In this document: positions 16,269-27,833 of the stretch, piece by piece
Position numbering within the stretch: position 1 is the stretch's first letter
Layout of the letters: each line of letters begins with the position of its first letter
DNA from: Desulfotalea psychrophila LSv54
GTDB taxonomy: Bacteria > Desulfobacterota > Desulfobulbia > Desulfobulbales > Desulfocapsaceae
Length of the DNA: 32,000 bases
Direction: 5' to 3'
Assembly (NCBI RefSeq): GCF_000025945.1
Contig: NC_006138.1
Span: forward strand, 2,580,001-2,612,000
The notes under the pieces: model-generated
Databases searched by the model: none
What the model was told of the DNA's origin: nothing
The model's input: only the letters and a program-made list of their open reading frames with translations
Made by a program: the position numbers and the translations under genes

Positions 16269-17516
16269 TCACATGATGCCAAATTTTGCCAAAAGAAAGC
16301 GTACAGCCAGAAACGAGGTGACCAAAAAGGTGAGTCCACCCATCAAATTAAGAAGGGCTGAGTTGCGTAAGCTGCCAGTCCGTCTATTCAGAAGATAGAG
16401 AATAATGGCAATGATTAGGGGTGTACCGGTAAGACCTAAGGCCAGCATCAGAGGGAGGAGAAGGAAAAAGCTGCCCTTAACGAAAGGGCCGAGCATACTG
16501 AGCAGACATCCGGCAAAGACTACCCCGGCAAAACGTCTATCCTTAACATCGAGCTGCCAGCCCATCTTATCCGAGAGAAAATAGGCCCCGGCCATAAAGG
16601 TGGGAGAGAGGGTCGAGAGAGTGGCTGCCCAGAGGCCGACCATAAAGATCTTCATGGCGCTGTCACCCAGAAGGGGTTTAAGGGCCAAGGCCGCATCCGT
16701 TGCCCTCTTCACCGCAATTCCGTTGGGATGAAGGACAGCGACATCCACCAAAAAGATGGCCACACTGTAGAGACCAAAGGCCATACCCATGGAGGAAAAG
16801 GTATCAAAACGGGCCAGAGACAGATCTTTTATTTTCCAGCCCCTAGCATTGGTATTATAGGTATGCATGCCGATAATGGTGATATGAACGGCCCCACCCA
16901 TGATGGCCGCCATCATCAGGGCCGCATCGATTCCGCCGGGGAAATTGGGCAGGAGGCCCTCACCAATGGCCGGGAGAGAGAGATCCGCCATAAAGAGGGT
17001 GGCCATAAAACAGGCCACCACAAAGATCACCAAGACCTTGCACAGTGTTTCAAAGTTACGATATCCCCTCCGAACCAGAAAGAGGGCAACCAGAACTCCG
17101 TAGAGTACGCCCCAATACGGGGTGTCCACACCGGTAATGAGAGAGGTGACCCCAGCTAAGGCATTCATCAAAACCATGGCGGCAAGCCAGGTGGCCAAGA
17201 GGGCATCTATGGTCAAAATCCAGGCCCACCGTTTTCCCAGATGTTTTTCGGTGGCGGCAATGATTCCCATCCCCTCTAAAACACCCACCCGGGCAGCCAG
17301 GTACTGGGTCGTGGTGCCAAACACCGCACTGAGGATTACCACCCAGAGCATCTTATAGCCATAGGTCGCCCCGGCAATGGCAACACTGGCCAGGGTCGCA
17401 GGCCCGCAGGCCACGGCGCTGATAATCCAGGCAGGACCCATATTTTTAATATACCTACAGTATCTTTTTGGCAGAGAACCTGCCTCTTGCTGAGCTGTAC
17501 TTACTTCGTTTTGCAT
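16269..17516 (-). CDS. NRAMP-fold (MntH-related) transporter lacking the canonical metal-coordinating motifs. It is under TPP-riboswitch control.
   Basis: A 415-aa polytopic protein. [38 protein letters not shown] aligns to the NRAMP TM1 region [45 protein letters not shown] aligns to the TM6 region GATVMPHVIYLHS. Confidence 0.85.
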   Translation of the reverse strand: [415 protein letters not shown]

Positions 17517-17705
17517 GGTCCATCTCCTTGAGTTGCCATGGGGGTTAGGCGGGGACTGGCACAGGAGATAGAGAAAGGCTCTGTCGGGCGGTCAGAAAAA
17601 TCCAACAACAAAGGCGCTCTCCGAGTTCCCTGCGACAGTATGAGCTGTATCAGGTTCGATGGGTATAATCTCAGCCCTGCCGTACAGGACACCCCAATCG
17701 GAATA
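17517..17705 (-). promoter_or_regulatory. TPP (THI-box) riboswitch with an SD-sequestering expression platform
   Basis: The minus strand from 17701 to 17621 reads CCGAUUGGGGUGUCCUGUACGGCAGGGCUGAGAUUAUACCCAUCGAACCUGAUACAGCUCAUACUGUCGCAGGGAACUCGG. This matches the thiM-type aptamer blocks GGGGUGC, GCUGAGA, AUACCC, ACCUGAU and CG.AGGGAA. ATCTCCT (17569-17563) is complementary to the SD AGGAGAT (17528-17522). Confidence 0.9.
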
Positions 17706-17870
17706 AGGGACTACTAGTAACATATTAGAAAAAAAGCAATTTTTTTCTGCCCCCGCTTCTGGTCCTTACCTACCCAAAGACTCAGCCTATATACCTAAAA
17801 GAAATGCCAAGAAAAGGTTAGACCAGACAATCTATCAATGCCCTTACTCCATTAAATGGGCAACTACCTT

Positions 17871-18404: not shown

Positions 18405-19033
18405 GGATCGTGATGCCAAAACGTTGACTATGGTAGAATGTGGTTTTTTTAATGTTCTGATATGGCTACATGTCTTGCCGTTTTTGCGGTGGTACTGACG
18501 AGGTAAGACGGCACGGCAAGGACAGTAATGGAAATCAAAGATTTCGGTGTTCAGATTGCAAGCGAACCTTCCAGCTAGAGTACCCTTATGTAGCCGATCG
18601 GCATGAAAGATATAGTCCTGGCAATGCTGGTATACGTGATACTGCAAGAGTTCTTAAAGTGGGCTGCATGGGTCTTACCCGTTTTAGAAAACTCAATCCA
18701 AGACAAGTAACTAGGTTCACAGATAAAGTTAAAGACATAGAACTGATTTGTGATGTCACCATGGGCATTTGTTAAAGATAAGAAAAATCAAAGGTGGCTC
18801 TGGTACGCGTGGGAACCACCCTAGGCGATCATCGCCCATGCTTTCGACAAGAGAAATACCGAAGCATTCAAGTTACTTCTGGGATTGTCAGCACCTTACT
18901 ATATAAGATTTTTCTGCACTGACAATTTTACTAAACAACAATTTGGCAACACGACCCTCTGCTACTTAACCTGGTACGAACTTTTTGCATCCAACATTAT
19001 TCAACAAAACAATTCAGAACAGTGCCTGCATTA
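18405..19033 (+). mobile_element. IS1-family insertion sequence remnant (left end plus disrupted transposase)
   Basis: The left end GATCGTGATGCCAAAACGTTGACTATGGTAGAATGTGGTTTTTTT resembles the IS1 IRL (GGTGATGCTGCCAACTTACTGATTTAGTGTATGATGGTGTTTTT). The InsA-like zinc finger reads CRFCGG..VRRHGK...NQRFRCSDCKRTFQ. After a frame change comes KKNQRWLWYAWEPP*AIIAHAFDKRNTEAFKLLLG...FCTDN, with an in-frame TAG at 18822-18824. No complete DDE region or right end was seen. Confidence 0.75.
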
Positions 19034-19057: not shown

Positions 19058-19837
19058 CTAGAACCTCCAGGAAAATCCAATTATCGGCCCAGACTGTGAA
19101 ACGTCATACAAAAAATCATCCTTTTGATAATCAACATCTAAATAGCGATATCCAATCGTGGTAGAAAAAGTTTCAGTCCAAGCATAGCCCAAATTGAGAG
19201 TTGCGTCCCACATAAAGTCTGATTCTACCCCAAAGCCACCAATTAGAAAATTTCCGATGAGAAAAAAATTCGAATCACCGAGCACGGTCAAACCTTTCAG
19301 ACCCAGAATGGGATCAACCCACTCTTCTCTATTACTAAAGCATTTCGGCCCATGCGTCCCTCCTGTAAGAGTAAGACCCGACTCAACAGACCAGTATCTT
19401 ATCCCTGCCAGCAGATCAAGAAACTCTTTATCAGCCTCAAAGAGACGATAAAAGGCAGCGGTTGAAACCATCCACGTTTTTGTTGTTGAACTAACTTGGG
19501 AAAAATAGGAACTAGATAACGGCTCCTCGGATTCAATATCTATATAGGAAATATCCAGCACGACCCCAACACGACCCTGACGAACCTCACCAACAAGCAT
19601 GAGGGCACCGTTAAGATTGTCTAAGACATCATCATAAAAATCAATATCAATATCCGCAGGCGGAAGCTCTGGCAAAGTCGCCACGGTTCCCCGTTGTCCT
19701 GCCAACCATGAATAGGGTGTTAAGTGAAAGATCCATTGATCTTTTTCTTCAGTTGCAGAGTAGGCAGGTAAGGAGAAACTTTGCAAAAAGCATAAACAAC
19801 AGAGTATTGATAGAAATAGTTGCCGCATTGAATTCAT
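19058..19837 (-). CDS. Outer-membrane beta-barrel protein of unknown function
   Basis: The signal peptide is MNSMRQLFLSILCCLCFLQSFSLPAYSA. The body shows an alternating amphipathic beta-strand pattern and ends in GFSWRF, a terminal aromatic residue typical of OMPs. Start 19837 has AGGGG 6 nt upstream. Confidence 0.7.
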   Translation of the reverse strand: MNSMRQLFLSILCCLCFLQSFSLPAYSATEEKDQWIFHLTPYSWLAGQRGTVATLPELPPADIDIDFYDDVLDNLNGALMLVGEVRQGRVGVVLDISYIDIESEEPLSSSYFSQVSSTTKTWMVSTAAFYRLFEADKEFLDLLAGIRYWSVESGLTLTGGTHGPKCFSNREEWVDPILGLKGLTVLGDSNFFLIGNFLIGGFGVESDFMWDATLNLGYAWTETFSTTIGYRYLDVDYQKDDFLYDVSQSGPIIGFSWRF

Positions 19838-20516
19838 AATTGCCCCTTTGAAATATTTTCTATATGCCCAAAAGCCATGTCTCAAACTGAAAAAATCAAA
19901 TAATTAATATGCCAATACAACGGTTTACGCCTAGACTATTTTGCTAACACAAAATTTGCCTGAAGACAAAAACGAAGTCCCTCAGGGCCCGCCTCTGGGG
20001 TAACCAGCAGTCTACCCCAGCTAACAAGTTTTGAGACGGCCACATTTATTGGCACTGACCAACTGTCCTATTTCCAGTTATAGTTAATTTGAATTGGCAG
20101 CGTAATGAGATCCGCTATAGGGTTCGATAATTCCTGGGCTAGATCGGCATCATTCATCTGCCCCTTTCTTATTCTGATAGATTTGCATGCTTGACATTTA
20201 TGGCCACCACTTTCCATACCAAAGATAACAATATCAAACATATGCATTGTTTCAAAAAACATTTTTCTTTTCAAACTATTGGTGAGTGAAGATAGACCCT
20301 CGAAGATTTGTGATGGACAAAGGAAAAGCAGAACGACGACTAAGGAATTGTTGTGGCAGGATGACAGACAAATGCTGAAATTTACGGTAGATGTATCATG
20401 GCTATCTAAGGCGTGCGAAGTGCTGAGATCCTTGAAAACCCTGGGGGAGATAAAGACAGTCGAAATGTGAGCCACAGGATCATATTAGCCAAGCCCCTTG
20501 CCACTTTAAAGTGCAC

Positions 20517-24527: not shown

Positions 24528-25514
24528 ATGCGAGAGCTTGATATCATCGGCAAGATACAACAGCATCTTACCGCCTATAATGAAAAAGTTATCTGTGGCA
24601 TCGGTGATGATTGTGCCGTTTTTTCAGGAGATAATGGCCGCCCCTGGCTAATCACCACCGACACCTTGGTGGAGGGGCATCACTTTGATTTAAGCTGGCA
24701 TCCAGCCTATGAGTTGGGCTGTAAGGCAATGGCTGTTAATATAAGTGATATTGCTGCCATGGGTGGCCTGCCTGTGCATGCCACCATCTCTCTTACCTTT
24801 ACCAAAGACACAGAAGAGGCTTGGCTGGATGAATTCATCAGAGGTCTTGCCTATATGCACCACAGATACAATATCAACCTGATAGGCGGGGATACGGTGG
24901 CCGGGGAACGTCTAAGTATTACCGTTACCCTGCTTGGACAAGCCCACAAAGAGCCTGTTTATCGACATGGAGCCATGCCGGGTGATATTATCTATGTTGG
25001 TGGCCCACTAGGATCAGCTGCCGCCGGACTTTTTCTCTTTCAAAATCACCGGGATGAAATCGAGACGCTTAAGGATGAGTATGCCTCTCTCTTGCGTCAT
25101 CACCTTGCCCCCATGCCTCAGGTAGAACTTGGCAGGGCCCTGGCCGACAGTGACTACATAGGGGCCATGCAGGATATTTCCGATGGACTTGCCACGGATC
25201 TCGCCCATATAGCCAAAAAAAGCGCGGTACAGGCCGTGGTCTTTGAGGATAAGATTCCGGTTCTACCAGAGTTTACAAGGCTCTGCAAAAGGTACCAACT
25301 TACAGCAACAGAGTTGGCTCTAGGGGGAGGAGATGATTATTTACTTCTCTTTACCGTACGAGCAGGAAGGGAAAAAGAAGTTGAGCGACTGGCAAGATCG
25401 GTACAGGCAATGGCTTATCCCATTGGCCTTATCACTGAAGGCAGCGGGGTTATGCTTAAGGGCCCAACGGGAAATTTGACTGATATAAGCTTTAGAGGAT
25501 TCGAGCATGAGTAA
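24528..25514 (+). CDS. thiL: Thiamine-monophosphate kinase
   Basis: IGDDCAV, TTDTLVEGHHF, AMAVNISDIAAMGG, LIGGDT and DISDGL are PurM-fold/ThiL signatures. The length is 328 aa. Confidence 0.9.
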   Translation: MRELDIIGKIQQHLTAYNEKVICGIGDDCAVFSGDNGRPWLITTDTLVEGHHFDLSWHPAYELGCKAMAVNISDIAAMGGLPVHATISLTFTKDTEEAWLDEFIRGLAYMHHRYNINLIGGDTVAGERLSITVTLLGQAHKEPVYRHGAMPGDIIYVGGPLGSAAAGLFLFQNHRDEIETLKDEYASLLRHHLAPMPQVELGRALADSDYIGAMQDISDGLATDLAHIAKKSAVQAVVFEDKIPVLPEFTRLCKRYQLTATELALGGGDDYLLLFTVRAGREKEVERLARSVQAMAYPIGLITEGSGVMLKGPTGNLTDISFRGFEHE

Positions 25515-27755: not shown

Positions 27756-27833
27756 TGGGGTGAGCGAGGGGACTCGAACCCCCGACTTCCTGGGTCACAA
27801 CCAGGTGCTCTAACCAATTGAGCCACGCCCACC
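27756..27833 (-). tRNA. tRNA-His (GUG)
   Basis: The minus strand reads GGTGGGCGTGGCTCAATTGGTTAGAGCACCTGGTTGTGACCCAGGAAGTCGGGGGTTCGAGTCCCCTCGCTCACCCCA. It folds as a cloverleaf: encoded G-1, 7-bp acceptor stem, GCTC/GAGC D-stem, CCTGG/CCAGG anticodon stem with loop TTGTGAC, GGTTCGAGTCC T-loop and encoded CCA. Confidence 0.95.

Follow-up and report, generated by a model that had tools for sequence, protein, structure and literature searches.

Transporters related to thiamine are currently listed as ThiT, ThiBPQ, PnuT, ThiV, ThiXYZ, YkoEDC, CytX, ThiW and ThiU (PMC6593275). The exchange of thiamine precursors shapes microbial communities, and the transporters of the thiazole moiety are poorly known. 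ThiW, the small S component of an energy-coupling factor (ECF) transporter, is the accepted but only predicted transporter of hydroxyethylthiazole (HET), and it is present in only 64% of predicted HET auxotrophs (PMC6593275). ThiU, a secondary carrier of the major facilitator superfamily (MFS; TC 2.A.1.6.12) from the Pasteurellaceae, owes its predicted thiazole role to the clustering of its gene with thiM, thiD and thiE (PMC10588857). Here we describe a locus of Desulfotalea psychrophila LSv54, contained in a stretch of 32,000 nucleotides (nt) that was analysed as a whole (NC_006138.1, positions 2,580,001 to 2,612,000; the window), in which a thiamine pyrophosphate (TPP) riboswitch precedes the gene of a carrier with the NRAMP fold. 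The regulated protein is most likely a new functional variant of TPP-controlled vitamin-precursor uptake, on an unexpected fold.

For D. psychrophila, a study of the delta-proteobacteria listed thiM-thiXYZ as the only operon under the control of a THI element, and predicted translational control for that element (Rodionov et al. 2004; PMC545781). The element in the window was therefore missed at that time. The text and supplements of the 2013 RegPrecise survey, which among delta-proteobacteria covers only the Desulfovibrionales, contain no Nramp, and a full-text literature search for TPP riboswitches, thiamine, thiM or thiazole tied to NRAMP or SLC11 found nothing relevant. Within the searchable literature the link between this riboswitch and NRAMP is undescribed, and all of the literature sources searched agree with the statement in an initial annotation of the window that NRAMP is not among the riboswitch-linked families of thiamine transporters.

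As an RNA, the element has nothing unusual about it and falls into an established class. When the entire window was scanned with Rfam at gathering thresholds, the only matches were to a tRNA and a TPP riboswitch, the latter to RF00059 (69.5 bits, gathering score 54.3; E 6.8e-12) in an alignment that spans the full model, positions 1-105. The leader contains the blocks GGGGUGU, GGCUGAGA, AUACCC, AACCUGAU and CGCAGGGAA by direct reading, and alignment to the RF00059 consensus places the conserved cores CUGAGA, ACCUGAU and GGGA in the P1-P5 architecture. The sole element missing is the optional P3a insert, which the E. coli thiM riboswitch lacks as well. Helices P2/P3 and P4/P5 were recovered by RNAalifold in 10 orthologous leaders, while P1 is supported by the alignment to the Rfam model and forms in folding when it is enforced. 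The initial annotation had recognised a TPP aptamer on the minus strand between 17701 and 17621, and had suggested a covariance search with RF00059; the search gave a significant full-length match at 17609-17706, all of the blocks and the P1 helix that it quoted are present, and assignment to the TPP class is virtually certain. What is new for TPP riboswitches is the gene family under its control.

The aptamer is separated from the open reading frame (ORF) by 93 nt, and it was proposed initially that within this interval ATCTCCT (17569-17563) pairs with the Shine-Dalgarno (SD) sequence AGGAGAT (17528-17522), 5 nt before the ATG at 17516, as a translational OFF platform. The pairing was confirmed at the level of predicted structures, as the helix belongs to the minimum free energy (MFE) structure of the leader and opening the SD by constraint costs 9.7 kcal/mol in folding. 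A terminator-like hairpin was not found in the leader, which rules out transcription termination as the mechanism and, together with the SD-sequestering fold, supports the proposed platform. Furthermore, the SD stretch AAGGAGA is invariant in 10 aligned leaders, as is the aptamer, and the CGGAGAU of the P1 3' strand and its flank, which repeats the SD core, is invariant in 9 orthologous leaders. From these features a mechanism can be suggested in which the riboswitch would form part of the 5' leader of a monocistronic transcript, and abundant TPP would lead to the SD being held in a pair with the upstream anti-SD. When P1 is open, UCGGAGAG (CGGAGAU in the orthologues) could compete for the pyrimidine-rich anti-SD, as in the classical thiM-type logic.

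Some results speak against such a switch in its simple form. The SD stays paired in every MFE state, constrained or truncated, and a clear SD-open alternative was not obtained. Furthermore, the anti-SD of the window differs from that of the closest orthologues, whose leaders show a partly different SD-masking helix in RNAalifold (GACAGUC : GAUUGUC); these leaders are 77% identical and therefore offer little covariation. Given the pairing in all MFE states and the different helix of the orthologues, sequestration of the SD is well supported by the folding models, whereas the pathway of switching between anti-SD and anti-anti-SD is one that we infer. The leader thus resembles the E. coli thiM-type translational riboswitch in its full aptamer with all cores, its position before a gene of thiamine salvage, its predicted SD-sequestering helix and its lack of a terminator, but differs from it in the family of the regulated gene and in that the anti-SD/anti-anti-SD logic is here only a putative one.

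The product of the regulated ORF is identical over its full length (100%) to the D. psychrophila protein P0001, which NCBI names 'NRAMP family divalent metal transporter'. It matches Pfam Nramp (PF01566) with 267.7 bits, but falls below the cutoffs of all three NCBIfam MntH/Nramp models (112.1 against 430, 75.7 against 272.5 and 46.5 against 50 bits). Its Pfam and NCBIfam matches are to Nramp models only, and homology to ThiW (PF09512/TIGR02359) or ThiU was not found. An AlphaFold2 model built on 52 relatives (pLDDT 94.2, pTM 0.92) breaks transmembrane helix (TM) 1 at residues 37-38 and TM6 at residues 210-211, precisely at the motifs CGPAT and GGAVHIT. The best Foldseek matches of the model are structures of DraNramp (TM-score 0.80-0.85, E ~1e-15, root-mean-square deviation 2.6-3.3 Å), followed by EleNRMT, a Bacteroides Nramp, human NRAMP1/DMT1 and a model of B. 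subtilis YcsG.

In the HMMER alignment to DraNramp, M-D-P-G-N corresponds to C-G-P-A-T and G-A-T-V-M-P-H to G-G-A-V-H-I-T. The initial annotation had described the ORF as NRAMP-like, with CGPAT in TM1 and HIT in TM6, and had advised an alignment with characterised NRAMPs; the Pfam score, the model and the structural matches agree with the first point, both motifs had been read correctly, and the alignment, made with DraNramp, finds the DPGN and MPH positions not retained. Residue conservation was examined in 126 subfamily members aligned with DraNramp, whose numbering is used here and whose residues have known roles as metal ligands and in the proton relay, the latter including E124, D131 and E134. 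The substitutions D56G, N59T, A227G and M230H are found in all 126 sequences and H232T in 125, so that the window residues G38, T41 and H211 are kept in 126/126 and T213 in 125/126. The acidic positions of TM3 are replaced as well, E124 by L, V or I, D131 by A (120/126) and E134 by L (124/126), as is Q378 by P (120/126). H237 and the basic pair of TM9 are mostly retained across the subfamily, in which H211 and H218 (window numbering) are conserved. Judged from this alignment, the metal site and the proton relay have been replaced by a conserved alternative site, made of G-P-A/G-T in TM1 and G-G-x-x-H-I/V-T in TM6, and we propose that the window protein is not a divalent-metal/proton symporter.

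Canonical NRAMP/MntH/DMT1 proteins (DraNramp structures 8e60 and 6d91) therefore share with the window protein the Pfam family, the fold and the positions at which TM1 and TM6 are broken. They differ from it in sequence (23-25% identity), with the DraNramp residues D56, N59, M230, H232, E124, D131, E134 and Q378 replaced in the window subfamily, and in regulation, the window gene being under predicted TPP and not metal control; the window protein also scores below every NCBIfam MntH/Nramp cutoff. The overall similarity to NRMT is weaker than that to DraNramp (EleNRMT, 7qia; E 5.6e-16, TM-score 0.72).

Table 1. Coordinates of the features discussed, counted from the first letter of the window
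Feature	Position	Strand	Basis
TPP aptamer (THI element)	17609..17706	-	RF00059 match; orthologous aptamers precede this gene in 35/80 loci
P1 helix	CCGA 17701-17698 : UCGG 17624-17621	-	sequence and Rfam model alignment
P1 3' strand and flank, UCGGAGAG	17617..17624	-	GGAGA copy of the SD; candidate anti-anti-SD (putative role)
Anti-SD AUCUCCU	17563..17569	-	pairs with the SD in MFE, P1-enforced and 3'-part-only folds
Shine-Dalgarno AGGAGAU	17522..17528	-	5 nt before the start codon; sequestered in predicted structures
ATG start of the transporter gene	17514..17516	-	ORF list
Coding sequence, 415-amino-acid NRAMP-fold carrier, GP[AG]T / H[IV]T subfamily	16269..17516	-	Pfam, AlphaFold2, Foldseek, gene context
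Codons C37-G38-P39-A40-T41, unwound TM1, in place of M-D-P-G-N	17394..17408	-	DraNramp alignment
Codons G207-G208-A209-V210-H211-I212-T213, unwound TM6, in place of G-A-T-V-M-P-H	16878..16898	-	DraNramp alignment
thiL, thiamine-phosphate kinase	24528-25514	+	TIGR01379, 293.7 bits against a cutoff of 184
tRNA-His, anticodon GTG	27756-27832	-	Rfam scan

In an exhaustive HMMER search that covered 1.84 billion cluster representatives, full-length relatives came from a handful of 50%-identity clusters (42-57% identity, 266-462 bits); outside these, scores fall abruptly to at most 143 bits, with about 30% identity. By these scores the carriers form a discrete and deeply separated subfamily, mostly of Desulfobacterota, whose more divergent members are 43-47% identical and carry the motifs AGPGT and GGSIHVT. 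The invariant motifs and the deep separation of the subfamily rule out a recently degenerated MntH. The initial description of a transporter that 'has lost' its metal-binding residues accordingly holds as far as the replacement of the residues is concerned, but not in the decay of an MntH that it implied. The proteins P0001-P0120 are named 'manganese transport protein' or 'NRAMP family divalent metal transporter' in the database, and these names are probably wrong because the ligand residues are invariantly lost and the context is one of thiamine.

The nearest relatives outside the subfamily also lack DPGN, having GPGT or GPGS and varied TM6 motifs. Used as controls, they have a pxpABC context or none linked to thiamine: P0150 (locus L101) lies inside a pxpA-...-pxpB-pxpC operon for 5-oxoprolinase and is of the YcsG/PxpT type, and at the control locus of another outside relative a thiamine context was not found. 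PxpT/YcsG (TCDB 2.A.55) is required for the use of 5-oxoproline (PMC13274462), and YcsG has been reported as an Mn2+ importer (PMC10448178). By analogy, PxpT/YcsG may be taken as a precedent, albeit a contested one, for organic cargo in the NRAMP fold: like the window protein it belongs to the NRAMP family, is without DPGN in the pxp-operon relative P0150 and is tied to an organic substrate. It differs in sequence (~25% identity), in its motifs (IGPGT and TTVVPYNLFLH against CGPAT and GGAVHIT) and in its gene context.

To describe that context, orthologues were surveyed with one genome per GTDB species, giving 80 loci (L001-L080), and their neighbouring ORFs were clustered and annotated by Pfam and tblastn. 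The host taxa are nearly all Desulfobacterota (Desulfobulbales, Desulfobacterales, Desulfarculales and Desulfatiglandales). Upstream of the gene or its operon, 35 of these loci carry a same-strand TPP riboswitch above the Rfam gathering threshold, while about 0.2 such loci would be expected by chance given the few riboswitches per genome. This recurrence of the pairing across species excludes chance, and the survey of orthologues for co-occurring THI-boxes that had been suggested initially thus gives strong support. A strict regular-expression pre-screen, which detected 10 riboswitches directly upstream, was left out of these counts. Same-strand aptamers also lie upstream in the further loci L085, L095, L098, L099, L103 and L104.

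Genes of thiamine synthesis and salvage accompany the transporter in many of the 80 loci. The most frequent is thiD (18 loci; typical order riboswitch-thiD-transporter), then thiE (11, directly upstream of the transporter) and thiY or thiXYZ (10), with a thiD::thiN fusion, tenA and thiM in two loci each. Taken together, 47 loci have one or more canonical thiamine markers, counting a riboswitch, thiD, thiE, thiM, thiN, thiXYZ and tenA. Immediately downstream of the transporter, 54 of the 80 loci carry a gene for a P-loop protein, which we call c1; the aligned regions of the two are often just 3 nt apart, and stop and start codons often overlap in the transporter-c1 as in the transporter-thiM pair. 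The window gene and its closest relatives stand behind the riboswitch either alone or with c1 only. Genes of the pxp group were found neither in the window nor in the clusters of neighbours that recur over the 80 loci, and no metal-responsive RNA family scored above the Rfam gathering threshold in the scanned loci, where MntR/Fur boxes were not searched for.

Of the more divergent members, those of four independent Desulfobacterales genomes (L085, L095, L098 and L099) are encoded in TPP-thiM-transporter(-thiE) operons. L049 has thiM-thiE-X-transporter and L089 has thiM-thiD-SSF-thiE-transporter. Systems for the pyrimidine moiety recur beside the carrier, as in tenA-thiZ-thiX-thiY-transporter-c1 (L046 and L050), riboswitch-transporter-thiZXY (L020) and SSF-transporter-c1-thiD::thiN (L091), while thiD::thiN fusions lie downstream of transporter-c1 in L053, L066 and L091. 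In Desulfobacterales the transporter is also paired divergently with a second riboswitch-thiZXY unit.

Several arrangements at these loci were noted in their own right. The X of L049 (2029-2880), a 283-amino-acid ORF between thiE and the transporter, has no Pfam match and may be either spurious or a salvage gene. In L023 (2773-2940), the TPP riboswitch is followed by a thiM-like fragment (46% identity over ~56 amino acids) and then by the transporter; the fragment may be the remnant of an earlier thiM-transporter operon. In L066, from a Desulfarculia genome, two TPP riboswitches stand in tandem on the same strand (2519-2620 and 2774-2884) before transporter-c1-thiD::thiN. Back-to-back divergent TPP riboswitches, 100-450 nt apart, are seen in L055, L056, L058, L061, L067, L069, L075, L077, L079, L107, L109, L113 and L144; one arm of such pairs is thiZ-thiX(-thiY) and the other thiD-NRAMP-like-...-c1, or, in L144, thiW-ecfAA'-ecfT-c1.

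The c1 product is a P-loop protein of about 180 amino acids with the Walker A motif GDVNSGKT (for example L001, 1888-2424); the gene was not found in the 32-kb D. psychrophila window. Sequence and profile searches gave no Pfam, NCBIfam or PDB match that would assign c1 to a family, and apparent PPR matches, with zero matched stretches, were rejected as artefacts. Its AlphaFold2 model (pLDDT 90.3) shows a small RecA/ASCE fold, and its best analogues among small-molecule enzymes are CobU, TK1 and CobA (TM-score ~0.5). Carriers and kinases that form trapping pairs are known from PnuT-ThiN and PnuC-NadR. The present arrangement is alike in that the gene of a vitamin carrier, of the secondary or facilitator type, stands beside that of an ATP-using enzyme, as transporter-thiM or transporter-c1, but the Pnu fold is a different one, and c1 is an orphan P-loop protein and only a putative trapping enzyme. 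Given so generic a fold, kinase activity of c1 is a conjecture.

A reverse search from c1 in metagenome contigs gave another 80 loci (L102-L181). An NRAMP-like gene lies upstream of c1 in about 41 of the 57 that could be assessed, with or without a gene for DUF2284, and EcfT lies directly upstream of c1 in 19. Ten of these 19, including every one with sufficient upstream sequence, hold a full (thiD|thiE)-ThiW-EcfAA'-EcfT-c1 operon, in which ThiW is clearly identified (PF09512, E ~1e-49; TIGR02359 equivalog, 142-152 bits, cutoff 84). No c1-anchored locus has both the NRAMP-like and the ThiW-ECF transporter, and the divergent double-riboswitch layout of L144 with ThiW-ECF matches that of L107, L109 and L113 with thiD-NRAMP-like. 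These alternative operons around c1 indicate that the NRAMP-like gene takes the place of the ECF transporter predicted for thiazole, a case of non-orthologous displacement within a conserved operon. The two carriers are thus alike in being TPP-regulated, with thiD or thiE upstream and c1 downstream, and mutually exclusive in the slot, but ThiW is a small S component (PF09512/TIGR02359) driven by an ATPase module, whereas the window protein is a secondary carrier of 11 TMs with the NRAMP/LeuT fold. ThiU is also a secondary carrier with a predicted thiazole role, but has the MFS and not the NRAMP fold and occurs in other taxa.

DUF2284, described as 'predicted metal-binding', lies between the NRAMP-like gene and c1 in 11 of L001-L080 (for example L056, 4348-4947) and 25 of L102-L181, as well as in L087 (1989-2603), and was not seen in the ThiW-ECF versions of the c1 operon. 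It may act on a derivative of thiazole, for instance carboxylated HET (cHET). As a further observation, domains D1-D4 of a group II intron (RF02005, 69 bits) were found in L104 (7747-8010), a few kb downstream of the transporter-c1 pair.

Given this context, the substrate of the carrier is very probably a thiamine-related organic molecule, which is in keeping with the initial suggestion of a non-metal, thiamine-related substrate. That suggestion ran from thiamine and 4-amino-5-hydroxymethyl-2-methylpyrimidine (HMP) to thiazole or a related precursor; its thiamine-related character is supported and the list is narrowed, as the context favours thiazole over HMP or thiamine because of the thiM-transporter-thiE operons, the co-operonic pyrimidine transporters and the replacement in the ThiW-ECF slot. 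On balance, we regard the thiazole moiety, either HET or cHET, as the probable substrate. The clustering with thiM and thiE that underlies the ThiW and ThiU predictions is found here for the NRAMP-like gene, and at the loci with pyrimidine systems genes can be assigned to the pyrimidine branch and to the coupling enzyme, leaving thiazole uptake and phosphorylation as the only steps without a gene.

In the pathway that we envisage, the carrier would work in the inward direction and supply a precursor for salvage, most probably the thiazole moiety, which a kinase would then phosphorylate. In D. psychrophila this kinase would be ThiM, encoded in the other TPP-regulated operon, thiM-thiXYZ, and in most relatives it could possibly be c1, encoded immediately downstream of the carrier. 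ThiE or ThiN would then couple the phosphorylated product to HMP pyrophosphate. The gene set of D. psychrophila, which has the TPP-regulated thiM-thiXYZ operon and no thiF (PMC545781), accords with a thiazole importer that is under its own TPP control and supplies ThiM. More tentatively, the NRAMP-like carrier, c1 and, in many genomes, DUF2284 can be seen as a new thiazole-salvage module, in which c1 would be a novel kinase or activating enzyme for thiazole that is not related to ThiM and serves either the carrier or ThiW-ECF.

Uptake of the pyrimidine moiety (HMP or one of its derivatives, for instance AmMP or FAMP), which ThiD would then phosphorylate as for the substrates of CytX, ThiXYZ and YkoEDC, has to be weighed against the thiazole reading, as thiD is a neighbour in more of the 80 loci than thiM. 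No other canonical gene is so common a neighbour, and in 15-18 loci thiD is placed between riboswitch and transporter; the thiD::thiN fusions after transporter-c1 (L053, L066 and L091) and tenA in the operons of L046 and L050 point the same way. However, adjacency to thiD is not specific because ThiD is also needed in de novo synthesis, and the gene often shares an operon or divergent regulon with thiXYZ and SSF carriers, beside which a second pyrimidine carrier would be redundant. The tight thiM-transporter(-thiE) units, and a replacement in the c1 operon that is ThiW-ECF and not a pyrimidine transporter, make pyrimidine uptake unlikely. Import of intact thiamine, as by PnuT, ThiT or ThiV, which c1 would trap in the role of a new thiamine kinase or pyrophosphokinase, is less likely again. 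It would suit the window gene and its closest relatives, whose position alone or with c1 behind a riboswitch is typical of thiamine transporters, as well as the likeness of a transporter-kinase pair to PnuT-ThiN and the fact that a recognised thiamine kinase is missing from many bacteria, but the recurrent co-operonic thiM, thiD, thiE, thiN and tenA would be useless for it, and c1 is likewise found after ThiW-ECF, a system taken to be specific for precursors (PMC6593275).

That the protein still transports a metal ion, for instance through a His/Thr site as a cation supply for thiamine enzymes, or else an unrelated solute in an incidental thiamine context, is the least probable of these explanations and in our view very improbable. 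It has on its side the NRAMP fold and Pfam match, the public annotation as a divalent metal transporter, the conserved H211 and H218, the possibility in principle that His211 and Thr41 ligate a metal, and the report of Mn2+ import by YcsG (PMC10448178), which has pxp-operon relatives without DPGN such as P0150. Furthermore, 30 of the 80 loci have c1 as their sole context and no canonical thiamine gene, and three, one of them incomplete, have neither a marker nor c1. It has to contend with the invariant replacement of four canonical ligand positions and of the whole TM3/TM6 proton relay, with the TPP riboswitches in 35 loci and the lack in the scanned loci of metal-responsive RNAs, as far as these can be told from Rfam and with MntR/Fur boxes outside the search, and with a gene that is embedded in thiM/thiD/thiE operons and is interchangeable with ThiW-ECF.

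The c1-only loci and those free of any marker also count against the thiazole reading, as do several further points. The HET specificity of ThiW and ThiU, with which the carrier is compared, is itself only predicted (PMC10588857). The fold of c1 is a generic P-loop of the RecA type, with a Foldseek TM-score of ~0.5 to Rho, CobU and TK1. In L178 (417-4167), a genuine thiM (HK, E 6e-63) lies about 900 nt beyond thiY-NRAMP-like-c1, in the same orientation. Strict mutual exclusivity of thiM and c1 held in the first 95 loci and is broken by L178, the sole locus with both, which downgrades the replacement of ThiM by c1 to a hypothesis; a search for ThiM in a large protein database gave 7,829 matches, a family too large for a comparison of thiM and c1 at genome level. 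Finally, the archaeal member P0125 (L081-L084; 44% identical, AGPAT and HIT) has no riboswitch or thi genes nearby, its contig neighbours being Nop, fibrillarin and TFIIB, so that the subfamily extends beyond Desulfobacterota and the thiamine link is not universal.

If the carrier does take up the thiazole moiety, it would be the first vitamin-precursor transporter in SLC11/NRAMP and a third, unrelated family of thiazole carriers, filling part of the recognised gap in thiazole transporters and improving predictions of auxotrophy and cross-feeding, especially for sulfate-reducing Desulfobacterota in sediments. The cargo of the NRAMP fold would then be a small heterocycle containing sulfur (HET, or cHET as a marine 'currency'), and the fold would be a clean natural case of re-tooling for a non-metal substrate, informative for selectivity, coupling and the YcsG/PxpT dispute. 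The annotation is probably wrong for hundreds of database entries that bear the name 'NRAMP family divalent metal transporter' or 'manganese transport protein'. Furthermore, c1, a candidate missing enzyme of thiazole salvage, would be exposed in this role together with DUF2284.

Among the other features of the window, thiL was confirmed at 24528-25514, in agreement with the initial remark that it lies 7 kb away; its opposite strand, the distance and the unrelated genes between rule out this linkage as functional evidence. The region upstream of the riboswitch holds an ORF of 275 amino acids on the minus strand (19058-19885) with a signal-peptide-like N-terminus and the C-terminal sequence ...GFSWRF, which has a weak match, far below the cutoff, to the outer-membrane beta-barrel family TIGR04219. 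Nearer to the riboswitch, about 750 nt upstream of it, a plus-strand ORF of 101 amino acids (18470-18775) matches Pfam Zn_ribbon_InsA and, with 51 bits against a cutoff of 100, the NCBIfam IS1 transposase, and by these matches appears to be a remnant of the IS1 family.

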